Source: Armatimonadota bacterium (GTDB lineage Bacteria; Armatimonadota; UBA10988). From it: a stretch of DNA of 64,000 nt. Each line of letters opens with the position of its first letter. Position 1 is the stretch's first letter. Position numbers and translations under genes: made by a program. The stretch lies in NCBI GenBank assembly GCA_016235455.1, contig JACRKZ010000093.1:9225-73224 (forward strand), given 5' to 3'. Positions 16,840 through 54,606 of the stretch are shown piece by piece. Under the pieces are notes generated by a model. The model was not told the DNA's origin, searched no databases, and saw only the letters and a list, made by a program, of their open reading frames with translations.

Positions 16840-16951
16840 GGGACACCTGGTACCAGATGAGAGTCTGGCATCAATCCCAGGTCGAGCGGTTGACAAAGTA
16901 CGCTATTCAGTTTTCAGGGTACCCCTCGGTAGCCAGGCGGCTTTGCCCGAT

Positions 16952-17025: not shown

Positions 17026-17035
17026 TGAGAGTGTC

Positions 17036-17292: not shown

Positions 17293-20214
<2,922 letters not shown>

Positions 20215-20345
20215 ATTCCCCTGAACCAAGGGTCACAGGCCTACAGCAGCGTCACCGCAAGCGGTGACGTCAGGCTCCGCTTCCGCGGAGCCGACCCGCG
20301 CGCTATCCAAACACCGCCAGGCTGAGCCTGGTGTGTGCCAAGTTT

Positions 20346-20461
20346 CCGGGTGGCCATAGCGGAGGGGTCACACCTCTTCCCATTCCGAACAGAGCCGTTA
20401 AGCCCTCCTGCGCCGATGGTACTGCACGGGCGACTGTGTGGGAGAGTAGGTCGCTGCCCGG
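20346..20461 (+). rRNA. rrf: 5S ribosomal RNA
   Basis: CCGGGTGGC...CCCATTCCGAAC...GATGGTACT...GAGAGTAGGTCGCTGCCCGG. Confidence 0.97.
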
Positions 20462-31394: not shown

Positions 31395-31395
31395 C

Positions 31396-33576
31396 ATGGC
31401 CAAGATTCGCTGGCGACCGGCCGATGTGGCCATGGCGGCACTGCTGCTGGCCACGGCCGTGGGCCTGGGCTGGGCTTGGCTCGACCGGCCGCTGGTGGGC
31501 AACGACATCGAGTGGCAGTACCTGCCGGGCCATGCCTGGCTGGGTCGCGCGGTGGCCGGCGGCGAACTGCCGCTGTGGTGCAGCGAGGCCGGCGCGGGCT
31601 TCCCGCTCGTGGCCGAGGGGCAGATCGGCCCGTTCTATCCCGGCAACCTGCTGCGCGTGACCAGCCTGCCACCGTGGCGGGCCTACGGCCTGACCATGCT
31701 GCTGCATCTGGCGCTGGCTGGGCTGGGCGTGTATGTGCACCTGCGGCTGCTCGGCGCGCGCCGGCTGGCGGCGCTCATCGCCGGCATGACGTTCATGGGC
31801 TCCGGCCCCATCCTTGCGCGCGCGGTCCATCTGAACCTGTTCGAGGGCCTGTGCTGGCTGCCCTGGCTGGGCGTTGGCCTGGAGTTGGCGCTGCGTGGCC
31901 GGCGGGCGCTGGTCGGCGGTGTGGCCGTCGGCATGATGTTGCTCGCGGGGCACCAGCATCCGCTGCTGCTCTCCACGCTGTTCGCGCCGCTCTACCTGAT
32001 CGGCCGCCGTCTGGTCGGCGATGTGGACGCCAGCTGGCGCGATCTGCCGAAACGGGTCCTGACACCGTTTTTGCTGGGCGCGCTGCTGGGGGCCGCGGCC
32101 TGGCTGCCGTTGGCGGAGCTGGTGCCCCAGGGCGAGCGCGCGGCGGGGCTCACCCTCGAGTCGCGAACCGTGCTGTCGCTGGAGCCAGCGGGACTCTATG
32201 CGCTGATCGCTCCGCAGTGGTTCGGCTCGCCCCATGCGGTCGACCAGTCGCCGATGCGGCGGTTCGGGGTGGTGCTCCCGTATGAGTGGTGCCCGTATGT
32301 GGGCCTGGTGCCGCTACTGGCGCTGTGCTGGCTGGGCGGGCTTGGGCGGCGCTGGCGTTGGTTGTTTGGGCTCATGGCGCTGGGCGGGCTGCTGTTGGCC
32401 ATGGGCCGCGTGCTGCCGTTCTACCCAGCGCTCAGCTACCTGCCGGGCTGGTCCATGGTGCGCGGTCCGGGCCGGCTGCTGCCGTTGTTCGCCTACGGCC
32501 TGGCGCTGCTGCTGGGCCTGACCTTGAGCGAGCACACGCTGCGCGGCGGGCCCGTAGGGCGGCCCAGGCTCTACGCCCTGCTGGCCACACTGTTTGCTGC
32601 CCTGCTCCTGGCCGGGATAGCGTGGCTCCTGGCCACGGCGCCGAGCCGCAATGGTGAGCCCTGGTGGCGTGCCGGATCGGTCGTGGGCTGCGCCACGCTG
32701 CTGCTGGCGCTGCGGGTCAAGGCCGGGCGTGGTCGGCTGTGGCTGTCGGCCTTGGCGCTGGTCGTGGCCGCCGACCTGATCAGCGCTTTCTCGGGCTACT
32801 ACGCGCTAGGCGAAACCGACTACTACGACCCACCGGTGGGCGTTGCCGCCATGGGTGACGCGCCGGTGCGGCTGATGGCACCCGACTACCACGGCGTGCT
32901 TGGATCCAACCGCCATCTGCTCTATCCCGGCATCGCCAACGTCGGGCTGCGCAGCGTCTTGGCCACGGCACGCACCATGCACCTCGGCGCTCTGCTGGAG
33001 AAAGGCCGTCGCGATGGCGATAGCGCGGGCCGCACCTGGCTGTCGTTGCTGCGAGTGACCGCGACGCAGTCCCTGCAGACGCCCGAGCGGTCGGTGCCGC
33101 GGCTGCGGCTGAAGCCCACCGGTGTGCCGCCGGCGCCGGATGCCTGGCTGGTGCCGCGTGTGGAACGGGCCGCTTCGGCCCAGGCCAGCCTGGAGCGCGT
33201 CTCACGGCCCGACTGGCGGCCTGACGCCGTGGCCCTTGTCGAAGGCCGCGCGCCGGCGGTGGCGGCGTCCACCCTCGGCACGATCGGTGTGGTGCGCCAC
33301 CTGTCGCGCCAGCGGCTGGCCGTGGCGACCGATTGCCAGGAGGCGCAGATGCTGGTGGTTGGTCAGTCGGCCTATCCCGGCTGGCGCTGCTATCAGCAGG
33401 GCCGCTCCAGTGCGGTGCGCGTGGTGGATCACGCCCTGGCCGGGGCGGTCGTGGCGCCGGGCCGGGGCTGGGTACGGCTCGTCTTCGAGCCGACCACGCA
33501 GCGGTTGGGCCTGTTCCTGAGCTTGCTGGGACTGGCGCTGGTGGTCGCGATGTGGATCGGTGGGCGCCATGAGTGA
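31396..33576 (+). CDS. YfhO-like multi-TM GT-C membrane protein
   Basis: ND..WQYLP, G.LPLW...GAGFP, many TMs, AGHQ, C-terminal YPGW..V..GAVV..G...VRLVFEP. Confidence 0.75.
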   Translation: MAKIRWRPADVAMAALLLATAVGLGWAWLDRPLVGNDIEWQYLPGHAWLGRAVAGGELPLWCSEAGAGFPLVAEGQIGPFYPGNLLRVTSLPPWRAYGLTMLLHLALAGLGVYVHLRLLGARRLAALIAGMTFMGSGPILARAVHLNLFEGLCWLPWLGVGLELALRGRRALVGGVAVGMMLLAGHQHPLLLSTLFAPLYLIGRRLVGDVDASWRDLPKRVLTPFLLGALLGAAAWLPLAELVPQGERAAGLTLESRTVLSLEPAGLYALIAPQWFGSPHAVDQSPMRRFGVVLPYEWCPYVGLVPLLALCWLGGLGRRWRWLFGLMALGGLLLAMGRVLPFYPALSYLPGWSMVRGPGRLLPLFAYGLALLLGLTLSEHTLRGGPVGRPRLYALLATLFAALLLAGIAWLLATAPSRNGEPWWRAGSVVGCATLLLALRVKAGRGRLWLSALALVVAADLISAFSGYYALGETDYYDPPVGVAAMGDAPVRLMAPDYHGVLGSNRHLLYPGIANVGLRSVLATARTMHLGALLEKGRRDGDSAGRTWLSLLRVTATQSLQTPERSVPRLRLKPTGVPPAPDAWLVPRVERAASAQASLERVSRPDWRPDAVALVEGRAPAVAASTLGTIGVVRHLSRQRLAVATDCQEAQMLVVGQSAYPGWRCYQQGRSSAVRVVDHALAGAVVAPGRGWVRLVFEPTTQRLGLFLSLLGLALVVAMWIGGRHE

Positions 33577-35101
33577 GGGGTTGCGTCGCCGGCTGCCGGG
33601 TCTGGCGCTGTTCGGCGTGGTGATGTTGTGCTTCGTCTTCGGTACCGTCTTCGCCACGGGCGAGCGCCCCAACCAGGACGAGGGCTGGTACCTGAACGCG
33701 GCACGGCTGGTCATGGCCGGGCACACACCGTATGTCGATTTCGCCTACGTGCAGCCGCCCCTGCTGCCGTATGTCTACGGCCTGCTCGGCGGGCATCACA
33801 CCCTCGAGGCCGGCCGCGCGGTGAGCCTGTTGTTCGGCACGCTGACCGTGCTGCTGGTCGGGTTGGCCGCTTGGCGTGACGGCGCGCTGAGCGGCCTCGT
33901 CGCCGCCAGCCTGCTGGCCTTCTGCCCCTTCGCGCTGTCGCAACAGAGCATCGTCAAGACCTATGCGCTGACCAATGCGCTGACCGCGCTGGCGCTGCTG
34001 CTGGCGCTGCGGGTGCCCGGGCGGCGCGGCCTGGTCGGCGCTTCGCTGGCCTTCGCCCTGGCGGCGTTGACCCGTAACTCCGCCGCGGTGGTGCTGGTGG
34101 CCTGGTGGCTGTGGCTGGCCGTCGACCGTGAGCGGCGGCGCGACCTGCCGCTGGCCGTCGCCGCGTCGTGCGCGCCGCTGGTCCTGGCCTACCTGCCGTT
34201 GGGCCTGATGGACCCCGCGGCGCTGCGCTACAACCTGGTTGGCCACCATGCCGCGCAAAGCGCCGGCGGCGACCTGGGCCAGGTGCTCGTGGCAGCCATT
34301 GTCGTCGTGCGCCAGATGACCGCCGCGGCGCCGGCCATGGCCGCGCTCATCGCGGCTGGGCTGTGGCTGGAGCGGTCCACGGCCGACCGCGGGCCGCTCG
34401 ATCTGGCAGCGCTGCTGTTTGGCCTGCTGGCGGCGGGCCATTTCGTTTCGGCGCATCCCTACCAGGAGTACCAGGTGCTCTGCCTGCCGGCTGGCGCGGT
34501 GCTGGCCGGGCTGTGCTGGGGGCGCATCACCGCGCGTTCGGCTGAGCGCGCCACGCTCCTGGCACTGCTGACGGCGGTGGTCGGACTGGTGCCGTTGCTG
34601 GCCATGGGGCCGACATTGTGGAAGCTGCCCGGTCTGGCCATGCCCGGTGGGATCCACGCTCCGCTACGCAAGGTCGCGGCCATCGTGCGCGCCAATGTGC
34701 CCGCCGGCCAGCCCGTGCTGACCTTCCAGAGCGACGTGGCGGTGGAAGCCGGCCGGCCGCTCACGCCCGGGCTGACGCTCGCCTCGTTCAGTTTCGTCTC
34801 GTCAGACGACGAGGCCCGCCGGCTGCACCTGATGAGCCCCGGCTTGCTCCGCGCCGAACTCGAATCGCGTCGGCCGGCCGCGGTGGTGGTGTCGCCGGGC
34901 GATCTGGCGCGCATCTTCCGCGCGCGCTGGAAGGAAGACCGGTTGGTGCCGGCCGAGGGGCTGGACACCGATGCGCGCCGCCTGTATGAACCCATTGTCG
35001 AGGCGCTGGACACCAACTACCGGCTGGTCGGCAGTGTCGACGGCGTCGGCCAGTTCGGTGAGTCGTTCTGGGTACTGGCGCGGCGAGGAGAAGCACGGTG
35101 A
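33569..35101 (+). CDS. ArnT/PMT-like GT-C glycosyltransferase
   Basis: NQDEGWYL, PY.DF.YVQPPLLPY after the first TM; about 11 TMs. Confidence 0.75.
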   Translation: MSEGLRRRLPGLALFGVVMLCFVFGTVFATGERPNQDEGWYLNAARLVMAGHTPYVDFAYVQPPLLPYVYGLLGGHHTLEAGRAVSLLFGTLTVLLVGLAAWRDGALSGLVAASLLAFCPFALSQQSIVKTYALTNALTALALLLALRVPGRRGLVGASLAFALAALTRNSAAVVLVAWWLWLAVDRERRRDLPLAVAASCAPLVLAYLPLGLMDPAALRYNLVGHHAAQSAGGDLGQVLVAAIVVVRQMTAAAPAMAALIAAGLWLERSTADRGPLDLAALLFGLLAAGHFVSAHPYQEYQVLCLPAGAVLAGLCWGRITARSAERATLLALLTAVVGLVPLLAMGPTLWKLPGLAMPGGIHAPLRKVAAIVRANVPAGQPVLTFQSDVAVEAGRPLTPGLTLASFSFVSSDDEARRLHLMSPGLLRAELESRRPAAVVVSPGDLARIFRARWKEDRLVPAEGLDTDARRLYEPIVEALDTNYRLVGSVDGVGQFGESFWVLARRGEAR

Positions 35102-36186
35102 AGCTGGCGCTGGTCCATGAATGGCTGACCAACATGGCGGGCAGTGAGCGCGTGCTGGGCGCCATGGCCGAGCTGTGGCCCGCCGCGCCGGTCTACACCA
35201 GCGTCTACGCGCCCGAGTCACTGCCGCCTGAGTTCGCGCCCGGCTCCATGGACGTGCGCTGCTCGTGGCTCCAGCAGGTGCCCGGCGCCAACCGCCACTG
35301 GCGCGCGCTGCTGCCGTTCATGCCCAGCGCGTTCGAGAGCTTTGACCTCAGCGGCTACGATACCGTCATCACCAACTGCCATCAGTGCGCCAAGGGCGTG
35401 CTGACCCCGGTGCATACGCGGCACATCTGCTACTGCTACACGCCGATCCGCTATGCCTGGGAGATGCCGCACCGCTATCTGGCCGAGGCCGGGCCGCTCG
35501 CACGCCTGCTGCTGCCGCCCGTGCTGCGGCGGCTGCGCGTCTGGGACTACGTTGCTGCCCAGCGGCCGGACCACTACATCGCCATCTCGCGGTTCGTCGG
35601 TCGGCGCATCGAGAAGCACTACCGCCGCGCCGTGGATGCCGTCATCTACCCGCCGGTGGTCACCGCTGACTACGCGCCGGCAGCCACGCGCGAGGACTTC
35701 TACCTGGTGGTCTCGCGGCTGGTGGGCTACAAGCAGGTCGACCTGGCTGCCGCGGCGTTCACCGAGCTGGGCCTGCCGCTCAAGATCGTCGGCGTCGGCC
35801 CCGATGAGGCGCGCGTGCGCGCCGCCGCCGGGCCGACCGTCGAATTGCTGGGCTGGCGCGACGACGCCGCCGTGCGCGACCTCTACAGCCGCGCGCGCGG
35901 CTTGGTCTTCTGCGGCGTCGAGGATTTCGGTCTGACACCCGTGGAAGCTCAGGCCAGCGGCTGCCCGGTGGTCGCGTTGGGCCGCGGCGGCACGTTGGAG
36001 ACCGTGGTCGAGGACGAAACCGGCCTGTTCTTCGCCGAGCCGACCGTCACCGCGCTGGCCGACGCCGTGCGGCGCTTTGCGGCGCGCGACTGGTCGGTCG
36101 AGGCCTGCCGAGCCAACGCGCGCCGCTTCGATGTCGCGCTGTTCAAGCAGCAGTTGGCCGACTTCGTGGCGGGCACTGCTGGCTGA
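35098..36186 (+). CDS. GT4 family glycosyltransferase
   Basis: LVHEWL...GSERVL, CYCYTPIRYAW, VSRLVGYK, EDFGLTPVEAQASG.PV. Confidence 0.93.
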   Translation: MKLALVHEWLTNMAGSERVLGAMAELWPAAPVYTSVYAPESLPPEFAPGSMDVRCSWLQQVPGANRHWRALLPFMPSAFESFDLSGYDTVITNCHQCAKGVLTPVHTRHICYCYTPIRYAWEMPHRYLAEAGPLARLLLPPVLRRLRVWDYVAAQRPDHYIAISRFVGRRIEKHYRRAVDAVIYPPVVTADYAPAATREDFYLVVSRLVGYKQVDLAAAAFTELGLPLKIVGVGPDEARVRAAAGPTVELLGWRDDAAVRDLYSRARGLVFCGVEDFGLTPVEAQASGCPVVALGRGGTLETVVEDETGLFFAEPTVTALADAVRRFAARDWSVEACRANARRFDVALFKQQLADFVAGTAG

Positions 36187-36194
36187 GCGGGCTG

Positions 36195-37739
36195 CTACTG
36201 CTGCTCCACCCGCGGCAACTCGACATCGGTGATGGCGAACGGCAGGCTGCCGACCTTCGTGCCGGGGTCAATCAGGCCGACCAACATGCGCGGCACCTCC
36301 GCCGAGGCGCTGATGCTGTAGAGCACGCGCGCCACCACGCGCTTGTCGCCGTCGCGGCTCTGCTGCAGGTTGACCTGCGACATCTCCATGCGCCTCCGGC
36401 CAGACTTTGTCTCCAGTACGACCACGGGAACGAGTGGGTGACTGGCCGGGCTGCCCATGCCGCCCATGCCCGGCATGCCCATACCGGGTATTCCGCCAGG
36501 CATGCCACCCGGCATCCCCATACCAGGCATGCCACCCGGCATCCCCATGCCCGGCACGCCACCGGGCATATCCATGCCGGGCGGCGGCCCTTGGGCCAGG
36601 ATGGTCACTCGCGGCTCGTCTTGCGCGGCGGGCACAGCGCCGAGGCCCGGCGGGCCGGGCGGCAGGACGGGGCCCATGCCGCCGCCGGGCATCCCCGGAC
36701 CCATGCCGCCGGGCGGCATGCCCGGGCCCATGCCGCCGCCCGGCATGCCCGGGCCCATGCCGCCGCCCGGCATGCCCGGGCCCATGCCGCCGCGCATGTT
36801 TTGGCCGCGGCCGCCACCGTTGGCCTGCGTGGCGCGGATGAGCTTGGTGAGTGCGTCGGTGAGCGGCATGGAGATGCTGAGTTCGGCTGTCCAGGTCTTG
36901 GGTGTGCCCTCGTATTCGGCACAGTGGACCAACGTCACGTCGATGTCGTGCTCCGACTGTTGCTGGTTGTCCTGAGCCAGGTCGCCGAACTCGAAGATGA
37001 CTTCCTGCGCCTCGGGCAGCACAGCCAGCGTGCCGGTCAGTTCGTCCAAGTGCTGCAGCGGCGCCTTGGGCAACTGGAAATCGAGGCTGAAGCTATCGCG
37101 GTACTGCGCGCCGCGCTGGATGGGCAGGTACTCGAGGCCCTGCGTGGCGCGGACCTTGGCGTCGAGCACGGTGCCGTCGAACTTGGCCCCTCCGGTGAGC
37201 CCAGCGCCGAGCAGCGTCCGCGACGCCAGTTCGCTGTCGGTCTCGAGTTGGAGCATCGTGGTCAGCGCCTGTCGGCCGACCGCCCGGCCGCCGATAGTGA
37301 TGCTACTGGCATCTTCCACGGTGATGTTGGTCAGAGCCACGCGGTAGGCGCCGACTTTGACCGTCGGTCGCTCGGGTTCGTGCTGCTGCGGACCCATGCG
37401 CGAGCCGATCATCAGGCTGGTGCCCATGTTCTGCACCACCAGGCCCTGCTCGCGCAACATGGCCAGCACCGCGCGCAGCGACTGACCTTCGGCCTTCAGG
37501 CTGATCTTGGGGTCGACGCGGTCCAGCAACTCCTCGGGGATCGCATCGATGTTTCCGCCCGGCGCCATGGTGCCGATAGCCACACCCGTCTGCGCGGCCA
37601 GCGCCGAGGCCACCGCACTCAATCGCGTGTCCATCGCGTTGATGGTCACCGGTGGGTCGATGACGCTCAGTGGTGCGGCCGGGGCGGCCGCCGTCATCGC
37701 CAGAGCGGCCAGGGCCGCCGCATACACGCGATTGGTCAT
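36195..37739 (-). CDS. Secreted hypothetical protein, paralog 5 of 5 (STN-like N-domain, GMGPGMPGG repeats)
   Basis: Signal peptide; SVIDPPVTI; ISLKAEGQSLRAVL; FEFGDL..QQQSEHDIDVTLV; LVGLIDPG..LPFAITDVELP. Confidence 0.85.
   Translation of the reverse strand: MTNRVYAAALAALAMTAAAPAAPLSVIDPPVTINAMDTRLSAVASALAAQTGVAIGTMAPGGNIDAIPEELLDRVDPKISLKAEGQSLRAVLAMLREQGLVVQNMGTSLMIGSRMGPQQHEPERPTVKVGAYRVALTNITVEDASSITIGGRAVGRQALTTMLQLETDSELASRTLLGAGLTGGAKFDGTVLDAKVRATQGLEYLPIQRGAQYRDSFSLDFQLPKAPLQHLDELTGTLAVLPEAQEVIFEFGDLAQDNQQQSEHDIDVTLVHCAEYEGTPKTWTAELSISMPLTDALTKLIRATQANGGGRGQNMRGGMGPGMPGGGMGPGMPGGGMGPGMPPGGMGPGMPGGGMGPVLPPGPPGLGAVPAAQDEPRVTILAQGPPPGMDMPGGVPGMGMPGGMPGMGMPGGMPGGIPGMGMPGMGGMGSPASHPLVPVVVLETKSGRRRMEMSQVNLQQSRDGDKRVVARVLYSISASAEVPRMLVGLIDPGTKVGSLPFAITDVELPRVEQQ
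36670..36792 (-). repeat. 27-bp coding tandem repeat (about 4.5 copies) encoding GMPGGGMGP
   Basis: gggcccatgccgccgcccggcatgccc units starting at 36670, 36697, 36724, 36751, 36778. Confidence 0.9.
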
Positions 37740-37741
37740 CC

Positions 37742-39196
37742 TTATCCTCCGTCGGGCGCCTCCTTGCCGGAAGCACCCAGCACTGTCTCGTTTGGCCCCA
37801 GGGGCGCGGGCTCGCCCAGGAACACGTCGCCGAACCGCACCGTCTGGTAGTCCACCGCGCGGCCGAAGTCCACCAGGCCCACACGCAGCTTCGTCGGCTG
37901 CTCACGGATGCCCACGGCGCGGGCCACGTAGCGCAGCGTCAGGCGCGCCGTCGCCGGGTCAAGGCTGATCTCGCGCAGCCCGACCGCCATCGTGCGGCGC
38001 CCATGCTCGCCTTCCAGCAGCACCACCGGCGCCAGGGGGTCGGTGGCTGTGTCGACCCAGGCGCCTACTGGCACCACCCGCCGCCGCGAGCCGTCGTTGG
38101 CGCGGCCCGCGAACGGCATCGGCCACATGCTGACGCTGTCCCATACGGAGTCGACCCCGCCAATGCCGGTTACACCCGGCGAGATGACAGTTTGCGGCAG
38201 GCTTGGCTGATCGGAGTCGATGGGCATCTGCAGCGCGCTCAGTCGCGGCCCGGCCGAGCCGGAGACCGCCACACGCGACAGCAGGTGCTGCAGCGGGCCG
38301 CTCATGGGACGCACCACGGTCAGCATGGCCTCGACCGCTTCCAGCCGGCGGTCATCGACCAGTCTGTGCAGGACTACCGACGCGCCCGGCTGCTCGGCGC
38401 GCTGTTCGGGCATGCCGTACGGATCGAACGTGAACACGCGCTCCTCGGCATCGCGGCACCAGGCCACCAGCAACGTCTGGTAGCCGATGCGGGTCAAGGC
38501 CGCGCCCGACCACGGCACGACATACTCGAGCGTGCCATCGGCGCCCAACGGCTCGAACGGCCGCGTGGGCGGTCCATAGCCCGTGGCCATGACGTCGCCG
38601 ACGCGGAAGACGGACTCCACGCGTGCGCCAAGCAGCGCGCGCGACAGCAACTCCGTCTCGGCCCGCACCCGGTAGCGCAGCCGCGTGACGCGCCGGGTCA
38701 GGCTCTGAGCACCGCTCTCGAGTTCGCGTTCGGTAGTCGTGGCAGCACTGCTGAGCGTGACGCGATAGGGGTAGTCAGCTTCGGCAGCCGGCGCCAGATC
38801 GCCCAGCGTTGCGGCACCGCTGGCCGCTCCGCCGGAGATGGCGATGCTGTCGCCGCGCGGCTCGACATCGTAGCCCTGGCCGGCGAGCAGGTTGAGCACC
38901 GCGCGCAGGCCGACATCCTTGACCGACAATGACAGCCGGGGCACCAGATCGGCATCGCTGCCCTGCGCCGGGCCTGGCCGCCGGGTCCACGGCGAGTCGC
39001 CGCGGCCGACCATGCGGCCAAAGTCGAGCGCATCGGGTACGACCACACCGTAGCCAGTCTGCTCCTGGATCTCGGTCGCTAACCGGGTGAACGGCACCTC
39101 GTCCAGCGTGAAGGTCAGGCGTGGATCGAGCACGCTGTCGGCGGCTGACGCGACCGCCGGCAGCAGGCAGAGAAGTGAGCACAGCCATGTGCGCAT
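37742..39196 (-). CDS. Secreted hypothetical protein, paralog 4 of 5
   Basis: Signal MRTWLCSLLCLLPAVASA; SVLDPRLTF; LSLSVKDVGLRAVL; LAPVVLLE; LRVGLVDFG. Confidence 0.8.
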   Translation of the reverse strand: MRTWLCSLLCLLPAVASAADSVLDPRLTFTLDEVPFTRLATEIQEQTGYGVVVPDALDFGRMVGRGDSPWTRRPGPAQGSDADLVPRLSLSVKDVGLRAVLNLLAGQGYDVEPRGDSIAISGGAASGAATLGDLAPAAEADYPYRVTLSSAATTTERELESGAQSLTRRVTRLRYRVRAETELLSRALLGARVESVFRVGDVMATGYGPPTRPFEPLGADGTLEYVVPWSGAALTRIGYQTLLVAWCRDAEERVFTFDPYGMPEQRAEQPGASVVLHRLVDDRRLEAVEAMLTVVRPMSGPLQHLLSRVAVSGSAGPRLSALQMPIDSDQPSLPQTVISPGVTGIGGVDSVWDSVSMWPMPFAGRANDGSRRRVVPVGAWVDTATDPLAPVVLLEGEHGRRTMAVGLREISLDPATARLTLRYVARAVGIREQPTKLRVGLVDFGRAVDYQTVRFGDVFLGEPAPLGPNETVLGASGKEAPDGG

Positions 39197-39303
39197 GGGC
39201 ACCCCCGGATCGTGGCACGGTCGGGCCGCGGCGCGGGTGCCGAGGCTCACCGAGGGTCACCCATTCGACAGCCGACCTGATCCTCCTCTGTGTCGACGAC
39301 CGG

Positions 39304-40863
39304 CTAGCGCGCGTCGGCCGCCGGCAGGTCCACGGCCGTGAACGCGAAGCCGACATTGCTCGTGCGCTGGCCGTAGTCCACCAGCCCGATGAGGAGGCGC
39401 TGCACCGGCTCGGCCGGCGCGGGGCCCTGGGCGGTGCAAGTCACGACGATGCGGTCGCCCGGAGCGGCGGCGCCTGGCGCGCCACCGCCGCCGCGGCTCT
39501 GCTGGCGCAGCACCAGCGGATAGCGGCCCTTGGCGGTCTCCATCACGATCATCGGCGCCAGGCCGTTGATCAGACCGGATCCGACGAGGACCGAGTCGAA
39601 CGCCGGCTGGACCAGGCCGCCGCCGGGCAGCCCGAGCACTGGCGGGTTGGCCGGCATGATCTGCACGCCGACGGGCGGCGGCGGCGGCGCGTCTGCTGGC
39701 GGGCCTTCGACCTGCCTCATCACGCCGTTCGGGTCCATCTCGAACCGCTGCGTGACGCCGTTGCGCGTAATGGTCACGTTGCCCTGGCGCTGGACCTGCA
39801 CGTTCGGCTGCGGCTGGCCCAACCCGCCGGGCAGGCCCGGCACGGCGACCGCCGGCGGGATGGCCGCCGGCGGCCCGATCTGGAGTTGGATAGGCGCATC
39901 GTGCAGCCGGAACGCCTCGGGACCCGCCATCCCGCCCATGCCCAGCCCGCGCATCGGTCGCCCCTGTTGCTCATTGGCCTCGGTCTTGGGGTAGGAGACG
40001 GTGACCTGGGCCTCGACGGGCAGTGGCTGGCCGACGGGGCTGAAGCCGCCTTGGGTCTGGCCGAAGCGCACCAGCGTGACGTCGATGTCTCCCTCGGTCT
40101 GTTGCTGGCCGGTCTTGTCCAGGTCGCCGAACTCGAGCGCGACCTCCTTGGCGTCGGGGTAGACGCGTAGCGAGCCGGTCAGCGAGTCGATGGTCGACAC
40201 GGGCTTGATGGGCAGCGCGAAGATCAGGCTCAGGTTGTCGGTCAGCCCCACGCCCGGCAGCGGCAGCCAGCCGGTCTGGGTGCGGGGTGCCTGCGCGGCG
40301 AGTTCTGCGCCGTCCAGCTTGAGCTGGTAGTCGGCGCCATAGCCGATCAGCGCGCGACTGGCGACCTCCGTGTCGCAGTCCAGCGTCAGCTCGACGCGCG
40401 TCTGGCGGCGTGACGGCATGGGGCCACCGAAGCGGCGGTACTCGACGTTCTCGGTGGTCAGGCTCTGGAGCTGCACGCGGTACGCGCCGACCTTGGCTTC
40501 CGGCCGTGGCTCCGCGGCTCGGGCGTTGGGCACACCGATGACCTGCACCTGCCCACCGACCATCTGCACCGTAACGCCCAGGGCCGTCAGTCGGCGCAGC
40601 ACCTGCCGCAACGTCTCGTCCTTGACCGACAGGGAGACGTTGGGGTCGAGCCGGCGCCGATGCTCCTCGGGCATGTTGCCCCATTGGACGCGGGCCATCG
40701 GCGAGGCGACCCCCACACCCGACCCGCGCGACAGCGTGTCGAGCACCTGGCTGAACGGGACTTCGCGCAGGTCGAAGGTGAGACGCGGATCGAGTACGCT
40801 GAGCGGCGCCGCGTGCGCGCGCAGAGCAATCCCCAAAAGGCAGAGGGCCAGGCAACGTCCCAT
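39304..40863 (-). CDS. Secreted hypothetical protein, paralog 3 of 5
   Basis: Signal; SVLDPRLTF; VSLSVKDETLRQVL; LEFGDL..QQQTEGDIDVTLV; LLIGLVDYG..VGFAFTAVDLP. Confidence 0.85.
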   Translation of the reverse strand: MGRCLALCLLGIALRAHAAPLSVLDPRLTFDLREVPFSQVLDTLSRGSGVGVASPMARVQWGNMPEEHRRRLDPNVSLSVKDETLRQVLRRLTALGVTVQMVGGQVQVIGVPNARAAEPRPEAKVGAYRVQLQSLTTENVEYRRFGGPMPSRRQTRVELTLDCDTEVASRALIGYGADYQLKLDGAELAAQAPRTQTGWLPLPGVGLTDNLSLIFALPIKPVSTIDSLTGSLRVYPDAKEVALEFGDLDKTGQQQTEGDIDVTLVRFGQTQGGFSPVGQPLPVEAQVTVSYPKTEANEQQGRPMRGLGMGGMAGPEAFRLHDAPIQLQIGPPAAIPPAVAVPGLPGGLGQPQPNVQVQRQGNVTITRNGVTQRFEMDPNGVMRQVEGPPADAPPPPPVGVQIMPANPPVLGLPGGGLVQPAFDSVLVGSGLINGLAPMIVMETAKGRYPLVLRQQSRGGGGAPGAAAPGDRIVVTCTAQGPAPAEPVQRLLIGLVDYGQRTSNVGFAFTAVDLPAADAR

Positions 40864-40930
40864 GGATGACTCCCGGTGACCGTTGCACTGGCCCTCTGTC
40901 GAGAGCCGGCTCTCTTGCGAGAGCCAGGCG

Positions 40931-42502
40931 CTACTGGAGCGGTACGTTCGGCAGAGCGAACGGCACGTTGGCCGTCTTGTCGCCCGGGTCGATCACACCG
41001 ACCAGAACGGACTTCGCCTCGGCGGCGGCACCCGTCAGCGGCACGCGCATGGTCACTGTGAGAGTGTTACCCGCGAACCGCACCGTGCGTTCACACGACT
41101 TGGGGTCGATGCCGATGCGCTTGCCCGGCGCCGTCTCCACGGCCACGGCCTGCAGCAGCCAGCGCGCCACGGCCGCCATGTCCAGCCGCACCGGCTGGTC
41201 GCCGATGAAGGCCATGCCGTCGGCGCCAAAGCCGCCACGACCACCGAAGCCACCAAAGCCACCGAACCCGCCGGGCCCGCCGCCACCACCTTGGCGACCT
41301 TGCCGGCCGGGGTCAGGCTGACCGGGTTGGCCAGGCTGACCGGGCTGACCGGGCGCCTGGGCGAACTGCACGCCGCCGTCGGCCGGCGTGGCCAGCGCGA
41401 ACCGCAGGCCCGGCTCAGCCTGAGCCTGACCGCCAGCGGCCGGGGCTCGTCCCGGGGCACCGGGCGCACCCGGCGCGGCACCGGGCGCGCCCGGGCCGCC
41501 ACCAGGACCGCCAGGACCACCTGGGCCACCACCGCGACCGCCGCCGAAGCCGCCGCCACCGAACATGCCGGCACCGGTCTCGATGCGCAGCGGGCCGTTG
41601 GCATTGGCGAACACGCCGGACAGACGCTGGGCCATCTCAGGACCGAGCGTGCGCTTGAGCGTCAGGTTGACCGTCTTCACGTTGCCGGCGGTCTGCACGC
41701 CAACCAAGGTCATGTCGATGCCGGCATCCGTCTGCGTCTGGTTGGCCGCGGCCAGATCGTCGAAGACGAAGCTGCGCTCGACGCAGTCGGTCAGGACGAT
41801 GAGCTGGCCACTGACCGCGTAGGAGGTCAGGGGTGTGGTCGGCAACTGGTAGGCCAGATCGAACAGGCCGTTGCGCGGCGCGATGGGCTGCGGCGTGTTA
41901 TTACCGCCACGGCCGAAGCCGCGCTGGCGCATCTCCGCCGGCTGCCCGTTGATGGCCGACTGCACGGTACCATCGATGCCCATGACCGCCAGCAGCGCCG
42001 AGGGCGAGGTGGGGGCCACGGCCAACTCGAAGGTCAGGCCGGAGAACGAGTTCGGGTCATTGGGGCCGAACCCGGTGGTCAGCATGTTCACCGCGCGGTA
42101 GTTGTTGAGCACCAGCGCCCACTTGTCGGCCTTGGCCACGGGCCGCGTATCGACCAGCGGCGCATTGGCCGGCGCCGCCACGGTCGACGGCGTGAGCTCC
42201 CAGGACATCTTCGCCGCCTGGTAGCTGAGCGTGCCGCCGACCTGCACGGCCAGCGCCGCCAGCACCTGCGACAGCGGGTTGCCCGCCGCGATGATGGTCA
42301 CGGTCGTCGTGGCCGGCTTGGCGTCGGCCGGCAGTTCGACCTTCACGCCGCCCGCGGCCGACAACTGCGTCAGTGCCTCGGCTAGCGCGACGCCCTTGAG
42401 ATCCAGCGTGATCGGCGGGTCGTAGACCGAAGTGGCGGCCGCCCACAGCGGGCTCGTCGCCAGCGCCAACACGCACACCAGTGTGAAGAGCTTGCGCGTC
42501 AT
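40931..42502 (-). CDS. Secreted hypothetical protein, paralog 2 of 5 (GGP/GAP/GQP/GGF repeats)
   Basis: Signal; SVYDPPITL; FVFDDL..NQTQTDAGIDMTLV; VLVGVIDPG..VPFALPNVPL; ATGA overlap with the upstream paralog. Confidence 0.85.
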   Translation of the reverse strand: MTRKLFTLVCVLALATSPLWAAATSVYDPPITLDLKGVALAEALTQLSAAGGVKVELPADAKPATTTVTIIAAGNPLSQVLAALAVQVGGTLSYQAAKMSWELTPSTVAAPANAPLVDTRPVAKADKWALVLNNYRAVNMLTTGFGPNDPNSFSGLTFELAVAPTSPSALLAVMGIDGTVQSAINGQPAEMRQRGFGRGGNNTPQPIAPRNGLFDLAYQLPTTPLTSYAVSGQLIVLTDCVERSFVFDDLAAANQTQTDAGIDMTLVGVQTAGNVKTVNLTLKRTLGPEMAQRLSGVFANANGPLRIETGAGMFGGGGFGGGRGGGPGGPGGPGGGPGAPGAAPGAPGAPGRAPAAGGQAQAEPGLRFALATPADGGVQFAQAPGQPGQPGQPGQPDPGRQGRQGGGGGPGGFGGFGGFGGRGGFGADGMAFIGDQPVRLDMAAVARWLLQAVAVETAPGKRIGIDPKSCERTVRFAGNTLTVTMRVPLTGAAAEAKSVLVGVIDPGDKTANVPFALPNVPLQ

Positions 42503-44085
42503 TGCGCACCTCCTTGGCCGCCCTGGCCACCTTCAGCACCACCGCGGCCGCCGCGGCCGCCACGGCCACCACGGCCACCACCGCCGTCACCACCAGCTCC
42601 GCCAGCGCCAGCGCCCGGCTGACCGGGCTGACCGGGCTGACCGGGCTGGCCGGGCTGGCCTCCAGGGCCGCCAAAGCCGCCCGGCCCGCCAGCGTTGTTG
42701 GGTCGAGGCGCGGGGATGGCGATGTCATTGACGATGACGATCTGGTCCTTGGCGGACACACCGGGGTCGAGCACGGAGACCACCAGGCGCTGCGCGCCCT
42801 GCACGGCGGTCGGCCAGGTGGCGACCAGATGCGTGGTCAGCGTATCGCCCTTGAGCGTGAACTCGCGCTGCTGCGACGAGGTGCGGGCATAGGCGAAGCC
42901 GGCCGGCGCCTTGGAGAAGGCTACCACGGGCACAATCCAGGCCGGAAGGGTGCGCATGCCGCCCATACCACCCATGCCGCCGCGTCCGCCGCCGCCGTTG
43001 GTGTCCAGCACCGAGCCGACGTCGATCTTGCCGTCCGCCGCGACGGGCAGCGCCTTGAGCTGCTCAACCGCCGTGGGACCCAGCTTGGTGGTGACGGTCA
43101 GATCGGCTGTGGCGGGCTGGTCGCCGGCCGCGGCGGTGAAACTGTTGAGCGTCACTTCCACGTTGCCGGCGGCCTGCTTGGCCCCAGCCTGCGCGGGGTC
43201 GAGCGTGACCAGGCGCTCGGCGATCTGGTCATAGAGCTTGAGGCTCAGGTTGACCTGGCGCACGGCCTTGATTTCCGGCGCGCCGGCCGGCAGCTCGAAC
43301 GGCAGATCGAAGTTGCCGTTGGCCGGATTGGTGGCCAGCAGTTGGCCCGACAAGCCGGCGACCGGCTTGAAGGTGACCGTGGCTTCGGGCAGCACGGTGG
43401 CTTCAACCGACTCGACCGAAATGCCGGCGACCTTGGCGTCGGCCAGGGCCGTCGCGCCGTCCACAGCGACCTCCAGGGTCAGCGTGGCGTTGGGCTGGTG
43501 CGCCGGACGCGGCCCGAAGAAGTGCTCCGTCGTGCGGGCGTAGCGCAGATTGTTGACCATGATGCCCAGGTCACCCACCACGCGAAACGGCGGCTGGGAC
43601 TGGTTGCGGCCCATGGCCGGCAGCACGTAGTAGGTGCCGCCCACGCGCTGCACGCGCTGGTTGTACTGGCGCGCCAGTACGTCCAGCACGTAGCCCAGCG
43701 GAAAGCCGTTGGCCTGGGTGGTGATCTGCGGATCGAGCATGTCCAGGAACCGGTTGCCGCCCTGGCCACCGGCGCCCGGCTGACCGGGCTGGCCACCGGC
43801 ACCGGGCTGGCCCGGCTGGCCCGGCTGACCACCAGGCATGCGACCGGCCATCATGCGCACCGCGGCCTGGTCGAAGTTGTAACCGGTCTGCGCGCCGATG
43901 AACTTGAGCACCTCGGACAGCCGCTGCCCCGACGCATTGATGGTCACCAGCGGCTCGACCAGGCTGATCTGGGCCGGGGCCTGCTGGGCAGGGCTCGGCC
44001 CAGCGGCCAGCGCTACGCTCAGCGCGGGCGCGGCCCAGAGCCAGCCGCGGCTCCGGCACCGAAAACGTGTACCCATGTTGGTCAT
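42499..44085 (-). CDS. Secreted hypothetical protein, paralog 1 of 5 (GQP repeats)
   Basis: Signal; SLVEPLVTI; LDPQITTQANGFPLGYVL; LVVSVLDPG; start at 44085 or 44076 (44076 gives better RBS spacing). Confidence 0.85.
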   Translation of the reverse strand: MTNMGTRFRCRSRGWLWAAPALSVALAAGPSPAQQAPAQISLVEPLVTINASGQRLSEVLKFIGAQTGYNFDQAAVRMMAGRMPGGQPGQPGQPGAGGQPGQPGAGGQGGNRFLDMLDPQITTQANGFPLGYVLDVLARQYNQRVQRVGGTYYVLPAMGRNQSQPPFRVVGDLGIMVNNLRYARTTEHFFGPRPAHQPNATLTLEVAVDGATALADAKVAGISVESVEATVLPEATVTFKPVAGLSGQLLATNPANGNFDLPFELPAGAPEIKAVRQVNLSLKLYDQIAERLVTLDPAQAGAKQAAGNVEVTLNSFTAAAGDQPATADLTVTTKLGPTAVEQLKALPVAADGKIDVGSVLDTNGGGGRGGMGGMGGMRTLPAWIVPVVAFSKAPAGFAYARTSSQQREFTLKGDTLTTHLVATWPTAVQGAQRLVVSVLDPGVSAKDQIVIVNDIAIPAPRPNNAGGPGGFGGPGGQPGQPGQPGQPGQPGAGAGGAGGDGGGGRGGRGGRGGRGGAEGGQGGQGGAQ

Positions 44086-44106
44086 CTCCCTCAGACGATG
44101 GGGCCA

Positions 44107-44133
44107 TAGACGCTGGCCCAGACGGAAGGTTCA
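44107..44133 (-). promoter_or_regulatory. Putative ECF sigma factor promoter of the five-paralog operon
   Basis: Minus strand TGAAC-16nt-CGTCTA (AAC/CGT consensus), 20-30 nt upstream of the start. Confidence 0.55.
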
Positions 44134-44294
44134 CTCAAACGTCACAGTGCCCATGGATCTTGTCGGGCAGGGCGTCAGACCAGCGGATCCGGGCCATTTC
44201 GCGGGCCCCACGGCCATGTGCTGACCCGTCCCGCCTCTTGCCGTGCCGGCGGTCCAGTGATATCGTGAGACTAGCTGGATCTGGAGGGCGAGAT

Positions 44295-44528
44295 ATGCTG
44301 ATCGTTAAGGTCACCGAGCGCGAAGACGGCACGATCGTCGCGGAGACCCAACGGCAGGTGTTGGCGCAGTTCCAGGGGCAGACCAGGCAGGATGTGGTTG
44401 CCTATCTGGAGCACAAAGCGCGCTCATGCGGGGAAGACCTGCGAATTGTCGAGAGCTTCGACGACTTCGACCCGAACGGGCGGCTCACGGACCGTGACTT
44501 CCGGCACATGATGAAGCGACACTTCTGA
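44295..44528 (+). CDS. Small hypothetical protein (77 aa)
   Basis: GGAGGG RBS, ATG at 44295, coding-like codon usage (MLIVKVTEREDGTIVAETQ...). Confidence 0.7.
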   Translation: MLIVKVTEREDGTIVAETQRQVLAQFQGQTRQDVVAYLEHKARSCGEDLRIVESFDDFDPNGRLTDRDFRHMMKRHF

Positions 44529-44562
44529 GACGAAGCGACGGCTCAGGTCAGGCGAAAAGGGT

Positions 44563-44598
44563 CGAGCGGCCAGCCCCCGTACGGTGACCGGCCGCTCG
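44563..44598 (-). terminator. Putative terminator downstream of the cold-shock gene
   Basis: CGAGCGGCC...GGCCGCTCG stem followed by a T-run on the minus strand. Confidence 0.55.
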
Positions 44599-44610
44599 TG
44601 GGTAGAATGC

Positions 44611-44820
44611 TCAGGATTCCTTGGGCTGTACGGCTACGGCTCGTGGGCCGCGCCCGTCATCGTTGATCTCGTACTCAACCTCTTGGCCCTCAAACAGCGT
44701 CTTGTAGCCTGCTGAGTCGATCACCGAGTAGTGAACGAACACGTCCTGGCCACCGTTGTCCTGTTCGATGAAGCCGTAACCCTTTTGATCGTTGAACCAT
44801 TTGACCTTGCCGACCGGCAT
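44611..44820 (-). CDS. Cold-shock protein (CSD)
   Basis: [33 protein letters not shown]. Confidence 0.97.
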
Positions 44821-44916
44821 GGGACACTCCAAATCCGGCTGCTCTCCGCCGCGTTCACGACCTCCCCAGTACTAGTCACGTCTGGTTGGCGGTCGGTTCA
44901 TCCGGATCCAACCCCC

Positions 44917-44946
44917 ATTGTAATCAACTTCGGTCCCGCTCTTCAA
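44917..44946 (-). promoter_or_regulatory. sigma70-type promoter of the cold-shock gene (~90-nt 5' UTR)
   Basis: TTGAAG-18nt-TACAAT on the minus strand. Confidence 0.6.
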
Positions 44947-44995
44947 GATGCTCCCGGGGGTACGAGTCCGCGTTACTCAACCGTTTCACAACACT

Positions 44996-45757
44996 CTACA
45001 AGCCGGCGCAGCACGGGCACCAGGGGTCTTTGGGCACGTTCAGGGCGAATGCGTCGCCTGCCATGGTATCGAATAGCATGACACGGCCCAAAAGCGGCGC
45101 CACGCGGGGATGTTGCGGCAGCAGCAGCTTGAGTGTCTCGGCGGCGCAGCAGCAACCCACCTGACCCGCCAGCGGGCCCAGCACGCCTTGTGTGGCGACC
45201 TCGGCGGGTGGCGCCGGGAACCGGCAGCGATAGCACGGCCCGCCCAACGCGGGCGCATAGACCGCCACCTGCCCCTCGCCCTGGTAGACGCTGCCATCGA
45301 TCCACGGCCGGCCAAGGCGCACGCAGGCGTCGTTGACCACATAGCGCAGGGCGTAGCTGTCGCCCGCGGCAACGACGGCATCGTACTCGGCCAGCACCAA
45401 CTCGGCGTTGTCGGCCGTGAGCGCGATGCTCAGGCCGCGCACCTCGACCTCGGGGTTGGCCTGCGTCAGCCGGGTGGCGGCTCGCTCGGTCTTGAGCAGG
45501 CCCAGGTCAGCCGGCCCGAAGAGGATCTGGCGGGGCAGGTCGGCGGGCGCCACGCGGTCGTGGTCGATCAGTGCCAGTCGGCCGACGCCCGCGGCGGCCA
45601 GATACAGCGCGCACGGCCCACCCACGCCGCCCAGCCCGACCACCGCCACCGACGCATCACGCCACGCCTGCTGCCCGGCCTGGCCGACCTCGGGCAGCAT
45701 GATCTGGCGCGCGTAGCGTTCGTGGTCCAGTGCGCTGAGCATGGTTGCCGTCCTCAC
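44996..45757 (-). CDS. HesA/MoeB/ThiF family adenylyltransferase
   Basis: ERYARQIMLPEVG..GQ, VVGLGGVG, YLAAAGVG, CYRC and CPCC Zn ligands. Confidence 0.9.
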   Translation of the reverse strand: MRTATMLSALDHERYARQIMLPEVGQAGQQAWRDASVAVVGLGGVGGPCALYLAAAGVGRLALIDHDRVAPADLPRQILFGPADLGLLKTERAATRLTQANPEVEVRGLSIALTADNAELVLAEYDAVVAAGDSYALRYVVNDACVRLGRPWIDGSVYQGEGQVAVYAPALGGPCYRCRFPAPPAEVATQGVLGPLAGQVGCCCAAETLKLLLPQHPRVAPLLGRVMLFDTMAGDAFALNVPKDPWCPCCAGL

Positions 45758-46593: not shown

Positions 46594-47918
46594 GCTCGCT
46601 CTGTCCGCACCCACTCGGCCAAGCGATGCGCCAGCGCGGTCACGTCGCCGGCGCCCATGACGAGCCATGTCTCGCGGTCGCCGGCGGCGGCGGTCAGGCG
46701 CGCGAAGGCGTCGTCGTGCCCACCCACGTAGGACACGCCGGCCGCCTCGCCACCCGCCACGGCGGCCACCTGCGCGGAGTCGACACCCAGCGTGTCATGC
46801 TCGCGCGCGGCGTAGATGTCGCACAGCAGCGTCTCGTCGGCGGGGTCGAAGACCCCGGCATACTCGGCCAGCAGCGCCCTGGTGCGCGCGAACTGGTGCG
46901 GTTCATAGACCACTCTAAGGCGTCGGCCCAGTTGCGTCGCCGCCAGCACCGTGGCGCGCACCTCGGCCGGATGGTGAGCATAGTCGTCGACCACCACGAT
47001 GCCGCCGCTATCGACCAGCCGCTCGAAGCGCCGTGCCGTGCCGCCGAACCGCCCGATCAACTCCGCGGCACGGGCCAACGGCACGCCGGCCTCGACCGCG
47101 GCGGCGACCGCGGCGGCGGCGTTCTGGGCGTTGTGGCGGCCCACGGCGGCCAGTTCCACCGTCACGCTCTCGCCTTCGGGCGAGGTCAGCGCAAAGCGTT
47201 GCCCGACGGCGCTGGGCACGGGCTCGCCGGTGCGCCAATCGGCCCCGGCGGCGAAGCCGTAGGTCTGCACGCGGCACACCGCCGCGTCGGCCAGGGCGGC
47301 GGCGGTGGGGCAGTCGGCGCCCAGCAGCAGCAGCCCGTCGGGCCGCACCTGGCTGACGAACTGGCGGAACGTCGCGACGTAATCGGCCAGGTCCACGTAG
47401 ATGTCGGGGTGGTCGTTCTCGACGTTGGTGACGATGGCCGTGCGCGGTTCGAGCGCCAGGAAGGCCCGCGCATACTCGTCGGCCTCGACCACCACCCACT
47501 CGCCGGCGCCGACGCGGCAGTTGGTGCCATAGTTGCCCACCAGGCTGCCGACCAGGAAGGTCGGGTCGAGCCCGGCCTCGACCAGGATGACCGAGGCCAT
47601 GCCTGACGTGGTGGTCTTGCCATGCGTGCCGGCCACGCACAGGCCGCTCTTGGGATTGACCGCGGCGCCGAGCACATCCGCGCGACTCCGAATCGGCAGG
47701 CCGCGTTGTCGCGCGGCAGTCAACTCGGGATTCTCGGCCGGCACAGCGGCCGAAACGGCCAGCCAATCGACGTCGTCGGCCAGGTTGGCCGCGTCGTGTC
47801 CGATGTAGACGGTGATGCCTTCGGCGGCCAGCGCGCGCGTGTAGTCGGAGGCGGCCTGGTCCGAGCCGGAGACGCGATGTCCCTGGGCGGTGAGCAGCCG
47901 GGCGATGGCGCTCATCAT
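46590..47918 (-). CDS. murC: UDP-N-acetylmuramate--L-alanine ligase, 5'-truncated in this sequence
   Basis: MSAIA..VSGSD, VAGTHGKTTT, VEADEY, TNVENDHPD, DDYAHHPAE; N-terminal IGIGG.G motif missing. Confidence 0.92.
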   Translation of the reverse strand: MMSAIARLLTAQGHRVSGSDQAASDYTRALAAEGITVYIGHDAANLADDVDWLAVSAAVPAENPELTAARQRGLPIRSRADVLGAAVNPKSGLCVAGTHGKTTTSGMASVILVEAGLDPTFLVGSLVGNYGTNCRVGAGEWVVVEADEYARAFLALEPRTAIVTNVENDHPDIYVDLADYVATFRQFVSQVRPDGLLLLGADCPTAAALADAAVCRVQTYGFAAGADWRTGEPVPSAVGQRFALTSPEGESVTVELAAVGRHNAQNAAAAVAAAVEAGVPLARAAELIGRFGGTARRFERLVDSGGIVVVDDYAHHPAEVRATVLAATQLGRRLRVVYEPHQFARTRALLAEYAGVFDPADETLLCDIYAAREHDTLGVDSAQVAAVAGGEAAGVSYVGGHDDAFARLTAAAGDRETWLVMGAGDVTALAHRLAEWVRTERA

Positions 47919-50900: not shown

Positions 50901-51147
50901 CCTGGTCGTCCCAGGCCACGACGGTGCCGTTCATGCCGTTGATAACGCGCGGGTTGTCCAGGTGGAAGCGGCCCTGCTCATCGGCTGTGGTCTCATGCCG
51001 GTCTCCGCACCAGCAGTCCTCCCACGCCAGCCGCGCGCGCGCCGCCGGCTGACCATCGGGCCGCAGTACACGCCCGTTCAACTCGTCGGCCCAAGCGCCG
51101 GCCGTAACCAACAGCACACCCAGCCACGCCCACCACCACCTGATCAT
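47919..51147 (-). CDS. Large secreted protein with carboxypeptidase-regulatory-like repeats and a helical C-domain (3' end lost at the junction)
   Basis: Signal; repeated GRV.D..G.P.AGA.V...TDA.GR; homology to the neighbouring paralog ends at ..LARWLICPSLDRW, then runs into murC sequence. Confidence 0.8.
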
Positions 51148-54535: not shown

Positions 54536-54606
54536 CCCGTATGTCCCCTTCGCATCGCTTGGCACCGATACCCGCCGAGACCCGCGATTGTGACAGACCG
54601 GCCAAT

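Follow-up and report, generated by a model that had tools for sequence, protein, structure and literature searches.

A five-gene cluster of predicted exported N0/STN-domain proteins in an Armatimonadota bacterium: diverged members of an unnamed, tandemly encoded family

The stretch considered here, hereafter the window, comprises 64,000 nucleotides (nt) from an Armatimonadota bacterium (assembly GCA_016235455.1, contig JACRKZ010000093.1, positions 9,225 to 73,224 of the forward strand), and our subject is a cluster of five co-oriented open reading frames (ORFs) on its minus strand at 36195-44085, named here paralogs A to E. They are real, coding-like paralogs of 502-528 amino acids (aa). We are highly confident that they form a cluster of ancient paralogs sharing a signal-like segment, an N0/STN domain, two beta-sandwiches and a variable glycine/proline-rich loop. 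With the same high confidence, we regard the five as an elaborated form, specific to this lineage, of an unnamed family whose members measure about 360 aa, lack the insert and are usually encoded as tandem pairs or arrays. More tentatively, with a probability of about 0.4, we propose by analogy with other N0-bearing proteins that they may constitute a periplasmic hetero-oligomeric scaffold or adaptor set docking through its N0 domains. N0/STN is indeed a recurring docking module of secretins, TonB-dependent transducers, type IV secretion cores and phage baseplates. The five genes are placed as follows.

42499-44085, minus strand: paralog A, 528 aa, as the longest ORF
40931-42502, minus strand: paralog B, 523 aa
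39304-40863, minus strand: paralog C, 519 aa
37742-39250, minus strand: paralog D, longest ORF of 502 aa (484 aa if read from the ATG at 39196)
36195-37739, minus strand: paralog E, 514 aa, the protein chosen for modelling

Third-position guanine-cytosine (GC) content amounts to 0.84-0.90 in all five genes compared to about 0.71 overall (about 0.70-0.72 in the region), as real genes would show, and the five co-oriented genes of the initial annotation are thereby confirmed. Pairwise identity among their products is 21-36%. In blastp comparisons, whose E-values are generous because the database was tiny, seven of the ten pairs reached E <= 1e-3 (C-E 3.6e-35, C-D 2.7e-12, B-C 8.6e-12), A-C (0.006) and B-D (0.015) were borderline, and A-D was not significant. 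Profile A5, made of 50 distant, short-form homologues and holding no protein of the window, matched C (6.7e-40), E (2.1e-32), B (1.8e-27) and A (4.1e-19) over the N0 domain plus core, and D in its N0 part only (E 3.1e-6). D is the most diverged copy and is linked to the family through C, E and its own orthologue, P0007. Similarity thus reaches well past the signal peptides. Every motif that had been claimed as shared is also visible in an alignment of the five: S-x-x-x-P-x-x-T is invariant right after the signal peptide, a segment of the LSLSVKD..LR.VL type, P(V/M)(V/I)..E and (L/V).G.(I/V)D(P/Y/F)G are all present, and F.F.DL..Q.Q.E/D..ID(V/M)TLV is found in B, C and E. These sequence comparisons support the view that the five are true paralogs in a co-oriented, partly translationally coupled cluster, and the proteins are predicted to be exported via Sec and cleaved by signal peptidase I.

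A common plan can be recognized in the five proteins, with a signal peptide, an N0/STN domain, two beta-sandwiches and a Gly/Pro-rich disordered insert of 26-131 residues. The AlphaFold model of E, calculated from an 8-row alignment, has a predicted local distance difference test score (pLDDT) of 69 and a predicted template modelling score (pTM) of 0.65, with disorder only at residues 310-431. It begins with an N-terminal helix, the signal peptide, and continues with a beta-alpha-beta-beta-alpha-beta-beta succession at 30-113, strands at 126-292, a helix at 295-308, the disordered stretch and six further strands at 439-507. The corresponding parts of the gene are:

37386-37667, minus strand: E residues 25-118, N0/STN domain, assigned by fold match, block pLDDT 76-93
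36813-37376, minus strand: E residues 122-309, strands of sandwich I, first strands of sandwich II and one helix, assigned by model, fold match and hhalign
36447-36812, minus strand: E residues 310-431, disordered insert (G 39%, P 22%, M 18%), pLDDT below 50, unaligned in the short form
36198-36446, minus strand: E residues 432-514, rest of the sandwich II strands plus the closing strand with the (L/V)xGx(I/V)DxG ... PFxFxxVxLP motif

The resemblance of the N-terminal segment to STN and secretin N0 domains, which had been noticed from the letters, is corroborated by structure as well as by profile. In VIA-align, E residues 25-122 matched the N0 domain of PilQ (4av2_A, Z 9.9, root-mean-square deviation (rmsd) 3.0 over 83 aa), a FecR-type protein (4m0h_A, Z 9.9, rmsd 1.9 over 72 aa) and PupR (6ovm_R, Z 9.0), with EscC, InvG, GspD, DotD, FecA and PupA also among the fold matches, and profile A5 matched the PilQ N0 sequence with an E-value of 9.8e-5. 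Among the five, Pfam STN (PF07660) was detected in C only, with 26.2 bits, below the gathering cut-off of 28.4. It was detected in 18 of 50 homologues at E <= 0.01, two of them above the cut-off (P0009, 35.7; P0023, 32.7). Pfam DotD gave three matches in these 50 homologues, one of them over the cut-off (P0043, 30.8 vs 27 bits), and no Pfam family other than STN and DotD was found in them. Together with the fold and profile matches, the sub-cut-off scores indicate that the N0/STN domain of this family is a divergent branch of the domain.

The part that follows resembles generic secreted beta-sandwiches, the best matches of E residues 122-510 being 3fbq_A of Bacillus anthracis (Z 9.3), YcdA (4r4g_A, Z 7.5) and YjhA (3cfu_B, Z 6.3). 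A better model was obtained for P0028, a short homologue of 362 aa without the disordered stretch (50-row alignment, pLDDT 88.5, pTM 0.84). Its residues 19-104 adopt the N0 fold (Z 10.2-10.6). Matches to its first sandwich, with 3fbq (Z 10.1) and adaptin-ear-like folds, span residues 101-360 with about 110 aligned residues, and those to the second one lie inside 225-344 (MPT63, 1lmi_A, Z 7.4; YajI, Z 7.5). We infer from these models that sandwich II is nested in sandwich I, which the last strand (...PFxFxxVPLP) would close. Three features of the initial annotation, namely its beta-rich core, P(V/M)(V/I)xxE strand and C-terminal motif, are present and can now be refined as parts of two sandwiches split by a disordered insert. 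The sandwich likenesses (3fbq over 109-110 aa; YcdA, Z 7.6 in P0028) show 8-13% identity, with scores in the range that the tool calls common for beta-sandwiches, and concern proteins without an N0 domain; as the functions of 3fbq, YcdA, YjhA and MPT63 are unknown, they offer no functional lead. With Foldseek, neither the model of E nor that of P0028 had a PDB match at E <= 0.001, 3fbq being found with a probability of 0.96 and an E-value of 3.2e-3.

Profile A6, representing the long clade that includes the five, was aligned by hhalign to the 50 short members of A5 with 100% probability and an E-value of 1.4e-41 over 338 columns, the Gly/Pro-rich stretch standing out as an unaligned insertion inside sandwich II. 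Judging by this alignment, homology between the long and the short form covers their full length except the insert. The latter varies considerably among the five, with 131 aa in B (G 40%, P 15%, A 14%), 123 in C (Pro/Gly-rich), 122 in E, 69 in D and 26 in A. Paralog A carries in addition a G/Q/P-rich insert in the N0 domain (residues ~86-110) and a Gly/Arg-rich C-terminal tail (~456-528).

The family to which the five belong is much larger than the cluster. When profile A2 (N0 plus core) was run against 1.84 billion representative proteins, 494 matched at E <= 1e-3, 76 at <= 1e-10 and 22 at <= 1e-30, comprising a close clade of 430-580 aa and many proteins of 350-400 aa that cover the profile. 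Used alone as a query in the genome contigs, E returned no related loci. Homologues are labelled hypothetical in their sources; four of the 20 that were looked up bear an organism name, in all cases "Armatimonadota bacterium", and the ESM Atlas holds unnamed clusters only, with Planctomycetota as the commonest label. The N0 module is strongly expanded among relatives, as P0031 and P0037 (1655-1677 aa) contain seven to nine tandem STN/N0-like repeats.

Within the phylum of the window, profile A5 matched 102 of 301 genomes at E <= 1e-10, many over the N0 domain only. Because at most six candidates per genome were scored and counts were taken from the listed rows, the following figures are lower bounds: the match extended beyond N0 in at least 38 of the 301 genomes, and at least 18 of these 38 encode tandem members, defined as two or more within about 2.5 kb on one strand. 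The largest set, in genome G133, consists of seven co-oriented members in a row and an eighth on the other strand, of about 413-455 aa as called ORFs. This array (L049, G133:C8:1697000-1716999, at 8677-18470) closely follows dnaN, recF, a DciA gene and serS, which places it near a probable origin of replication. G051 encodes a tandem of four members and, at another locus, two more, and G095, G003 and G000:C122 two each. Fused forms also occur, namely an 803-aa ORF in G001 with two N0-plus-core units and P0036, P0044 and P0060 with a duplicated core. Homologues are thus not restricted to singletons: tandem sets of up to seven genes are common. The family extends beyond the operon and across the phylum in its form of about 360 aa; the nine other family loci annotated differ in their neighbours.

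In the genome of the window itself (G000, 93% complete), the long-form copies are these five only. A second tandem pair, of the short form without the Gly/Pro insert, is encoded at G000:C122:4995-7216 (L064), directly upstream of RNase Y and opposite a CHAT/TPR protein.

No family of Pfam, NCBIfam, PADLOC or PHROGs covers the whole protein in any of the five, and the absence of a full-length match to a characterised family in these libraries agrees with the initial annotation. Full-text literature searches on the secretin/STN domain in the phylum, judged by title or by the start of the abstract, yielded nothing on this family among the papers listed. While the N0/STN module itself is known, neither the libraries nor the literature searched describe the protein as a whole, the nesting of its sandwiches, the family or its tandem arrangement.

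The age of the set is documented by a quick maximum-likelihood tree (36 rows, 398 columns, LG+G4), rooted on six short-form proteins and supported only by the Shimodaira-Hasegawa-like approximate likelihood-ratio test (SH-aLRT), in which the five have the following orthologues.

A: clade with P0008 and P0012, support 97
B: clade with P0016, P0017, P0019 and P0022, support 97
C: P0002, support 100, 64% identity
D: P0007, support 100, 51% identity
E: P0004, support 100, 64% identity

An unrelated metagenome contig of 2316 nt (L057), the only one returned by one metagenome scan, reproduces the D-E order and spacing of the window: the C-terminal part of a D-type gene (54% identity to D residues 401-502, E-value 3.7e-31) is followed, after 2 nt, by the E orthologue (64%). 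One or more metagenome contigs of 14,607 nt are the longest recorded for both P0159 (A-type) and P0016 (B-type). An own orthologue for each paralog and a recurring D-E junction indicate an old set that has been kept, rather than a recent duplication. The single long-form copies of G003, G004 and G005, three genomes of the same taxonomic family, form a separate clade with a support of 95. A gene for an FG-GAP repeat protein of about 310 aa directly follows the single copy in these three genomes (L009 569-1489, L010 3161-4102, L053 3189-4115); the protein of L010 has an N-terminal membrane anchor, as read by eye, and the gene was not found in G000 by one protein query.

The junctions between the five genes are of two kinds. 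The stop of A and the ATG of B overlap as ATGA at 42499-42502, with AAGGAGG 7 nt before the B start, and D and E are separated by a 2-nt gap, E being preceded by a GGAGG ribosome site. On the other hand, 67 nt separate B from C, and 53 nt (GTG at 39250) or 107 nt (ATG at 39196) separate C from D. The tight linkage initially described therefore holds for A/B and D/E, but not for the looser B-C and C-D junctions. D probably starts at the ATG at 39196, where the database entry P0003 (484 aa) begins and from which a normal signal peptide results, and A probably starts at its second ATG (44076), 9 nt after GAGGGAG. Two untranslated segments deserve mention:

40864-40930, minus strand: B-C spacer, with two adjacent 7-bp GC-rich hairpins (GGCTCTC-N4-GAGRGCC) without a T run
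44086-44291, minus strand: untranslated region upstream of A, reaching a divergent small ORF on the plus strand

The B-C spacer folds with a minimum free energy of -33.3 kcal/mol (z -3.0), a value equalled by one of 200 shuffled sequences, and its hairpin motif occurs nowhere else within the window; the hairpins may represent an intercistronic element of RNA processing or stability. The segment at 44086-44291 is the presumed promoter region of A. No sigma-70-like promoter match was found within it, and the promoter scan placed its single promoter-like site near 44917-44946, upstream of csp. Two terminator-like sites were detected, both within B, a number exceeded in shuffled sequence, and Rfam at E <= 1 gave no match across 35900-45100.

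The cluster is also recovered from sequencing runs. One 11,199-nt contig of a possible source run spans 36764-44600 with five differing letters and breaks only in the Gly/Pro/Met repeat of E. A 1620-nt contig of run X3, from the same study, spans the D/E junction. In a second study (runs X4 and X5), each of the five genes is matched by short contigs of low depth that differ by 0-4 letters, and one of these contigs spans the A/B overlap (42071-42585). Length variants were seen in other runs at 36741 (-3), 41501 (+9), 41537 (+3), 42617 (-9) and 43774/43775 (+2 and +1). All five are multiples of 3 nt and lie inside low-complexity segments of E, B or A, which fits translated, length-tolerant loops.

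Around the cluster, the stop of E lies 8 nt from that of a convergent GT4 glycosyltransferase gene. The latter belongs to a glycan-assembly cluster at 29994-36186 on the plus strand, which converges on E and includes Bac_transf, YfhO-like, PMT_2-like GT-C and GT4 genes. On the other side, an ORF of 78 aa without a Pfam match (44292-44528, plus strand) diverges from A, and a cold-shock-domain gene (44611-44820, minus strand; CSD, 94.5 bits) converges on this ORF, with ThiF, PHP and Mur-ligase genes beyond. A MurC-like neighbour had matches of just 34-48%, scattered over many phyla, and gave no clue to the phylum. Two very large proteins with repeated CarboxypepD_reg domains, four matched stretches each, are encoded at 47915-51147 and 51245-54634 on the minus strand; the longest ORF of the first one (47008-51147) extends across the Mur-ligase gene, and its 3' end is surely called too far. 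Further away, a complete rRNA operon (15302-20462, plus strand) comprises the 16S (15302-16836), two tRNAs (16952-17025 and 17036-17108), the 23S (17291-20218) and the 5S (20346-20462), and explains a dip of GC to 0.57. At the nine other loci, the flanking genes are of a housekeeping or unrelated kind, among them dnaN-recF-serS, RNase Y, GGDEF and glycosidase genes.

Proteins with a similar N-terminal domain provide the closest points of comparison. Secretins such as PilQ, GspD/XcpQ, InvG and EscC have the same N-terminal fold (EscC, 3gr5_A, Z 8.6 with E; 4av2_A, Z 10.2 with P0028). Unlike them, the five lack the N1-N3 ring domains and the secretin or gate domain, and have two sandwiches instead: Secretin (PF00263) gave no match at E <= 1 in the five, and the models show sandwiches to the C-terminus. 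The same genome has three secretin matches over the cut-off elsewhere. The STN domains of TonB-dependent transducers, FecR and PupR share this small fold with scores equal to or slightly above those of secretin N0 (4m0h_A, Z 9.9 with E and 10.6 with P0028; 6ovm_R, Z 9.0 and 10.4; PupA 2a02 and FecA 1zzv, Z 6.2-9.0). In contrast to transducers, the five have no plug or barrel after the STN domain, as Plug and TonB_dep_Rec of Pfam gave no match in them, and the only Plug-domain receptor of the genome lies outside the cluster. They differ from FecR-type proteins by the absence of a cytoplasmic anti-sigma domain, a transmembrane anchor and a sigma-factor neighbour and by a reversed domain order, the STN domain being N-terminal; the FecR family of Pfam gave no match in the five. 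DotD (6x62_Dd) is a fold match as well (Z 7.6 with E and 9.0 with P0028). DotD and VirB7-type proteins are stand-alone N0-like envelope subunits that form rings with other subunits in type IV secretion cores. Unlike DotD, the five are much larger and have two extra sandwiches; DotD (PF16816) had no match in them, no lipobox was evident by eye, and no type IV secretion gene was seen among the neighbours scanned. That no barrel, secretin core or enzyme family follows the N-terminal domain, as first proposed, is thus sustained by the library scans of the five and by the models.

On this basis, a mechanism can be sketched. The five subunits would be exported to the periplasm, partial translational coupling of the cluster keeping their amounts similar, and would then act jointly as a hetero-oligomeric scaffold or adaptor set, a joint action suggested by this coupling, by the retention of the five as a set and by the fused forms. 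By likeness to secretins, transducers and DotD, the N0 domain would serve as the docking element, its edge strands making contact with a neighbouring subunit or some other envelope protein. The sandwiches would bear specific surfaces, and the flexible loops could serve as spacers or give reach. The likeliest docking targets would be envelope-spanning machines, for instance the secretin-based systems of the organism. Prediction of a complex of D (484 aa) and E (514 aa), with a 26-row alignment each, gave scores of 0.23 and 0.08, compared to the tool's mark of 0.32, and weighs neither way on their binding.

Several points weigh against such a joint assembly. The B-C and C-D gaps would leave room for separate regulation, and simple duplication and divergence of independent binders would also yield tandem arrays. 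The close relatives G003, G004 and G005 manage on one long-form copy of a different clade, and the two units of G001 sit on long branches, so that their placement in the tree is unsure. Signal peptides and cleavage by signal peptidase I were judged by eye from the N-termini. Among the nine other loci annotated, the neighbours found in the window recur beside no homologue and vary by genome, and no family member lies beside a secretin or pilus gene. Finally, secretins are present in all 301 genomes of the phylum, so that their co-occurrence with the family cannot support a link.

It is possible, if somewhat unlikely, that the five are instead a bank of independent periplasmic binders or adaptors, which would share the N0 handle, bind different ligands through their own sandwich surfaces and form no stable complex. 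Such a bank would agree with a pairwise identity of just 21-36%, with array sizes of 1 to 7 across genomes, relatives having single copies, and with the conservation of each subfamily on its own. The A/B overlap, the 2-nt coupling of D and E, the D-E order in another organism and the fused forms fit joint action better, yet they are compatible with independent roles. A more ambitious version of the joint assembly is doubtful: free-standing N0 subunits would here define a new class of periplasmic assembly, as a fixed five-subunit hetero-oligomer such as a ring, collar or bridge to an envelope-spanning machine, with the loops as a flexible mesh and pairs as the minimal unit elsewhere in the phylum.

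The sandwiches could also be read as immunoglobulin (Ig)-like adhesin modules, and the loops as extended segments, of secreted or cell-surface structural or adhesive proteins (coat, fibre or matrix). The likeness to MPT63 (Z 7.4), YcdA (Z 7.5-7.6) and 3fbq (Z 9.3-10.1), low-complexity stretches that differ in length between strains and the convergent polysaccharide/glycosylation cluster next door would all suit this explanation. We nevertheless consider it improbable, since these fold scores are in the tool's common range, no surface-anchoring or outer-membrane signal appeared in the libraries scanned, and the glycosylation genes are on the other strand and not conserved beside homologues. Furthermore, N0/STN domains are known from the periplasmic faces of envelope machines. 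Very improbable in our opinion is a cell-surface signalling relay of the FecA/FecR or PupA/PupR kind, with the STN domain as partner of a TonB-dependent transducer or of a FecR-like anti-sigma factor. FecR-type and PupR STN domains and the signalling domains of FecA and PupA do rank among the top fold matches (Z 8.9-10.6), but secretin N0 domains score equally. Moreover, the genome has a single Plug-domain receptor, no sigma or anti-sigma gene lies beside the array or in the nine other loci annotated, and STN heads a soluble exported protein here, being neither the N-terminus of a receptor nor the C-terminus of an anti-sigma factor. A remnant or cargo of a phage tail, tailocin or contractile-injection baseplate, the hubs of which also have N0-like domains, is close to excluded. 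Hub or tail proteins (3d37, 1wru, 3gs9, 3cdd and 8kea) are indeed among the N0 fold matches with Z 6.5-8.7, but PHROGs gave no match for the five or P0028, no phage genes lie nearby, the N-termini resemble signal peptides, and the distribution is chromosomal and phylum-wide, beside housekeeping genes.

Armatimonadota are diderm and poorly studied bacteria with few cultured members. The N0 docking module heads here a soluble exported family that is unnamed in any library searched and spread over the phylum. If the sets do form complexes, they would represent a novel kind of envelope assembly in which the N0 module is put to a new use, and would give a handle on the envelope architecture of the phylum. 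If they do not, the N0 domain followed by a nested double sandwich, with its high-confidence model, would still be a well-delimited candidate for a domain-family entry.

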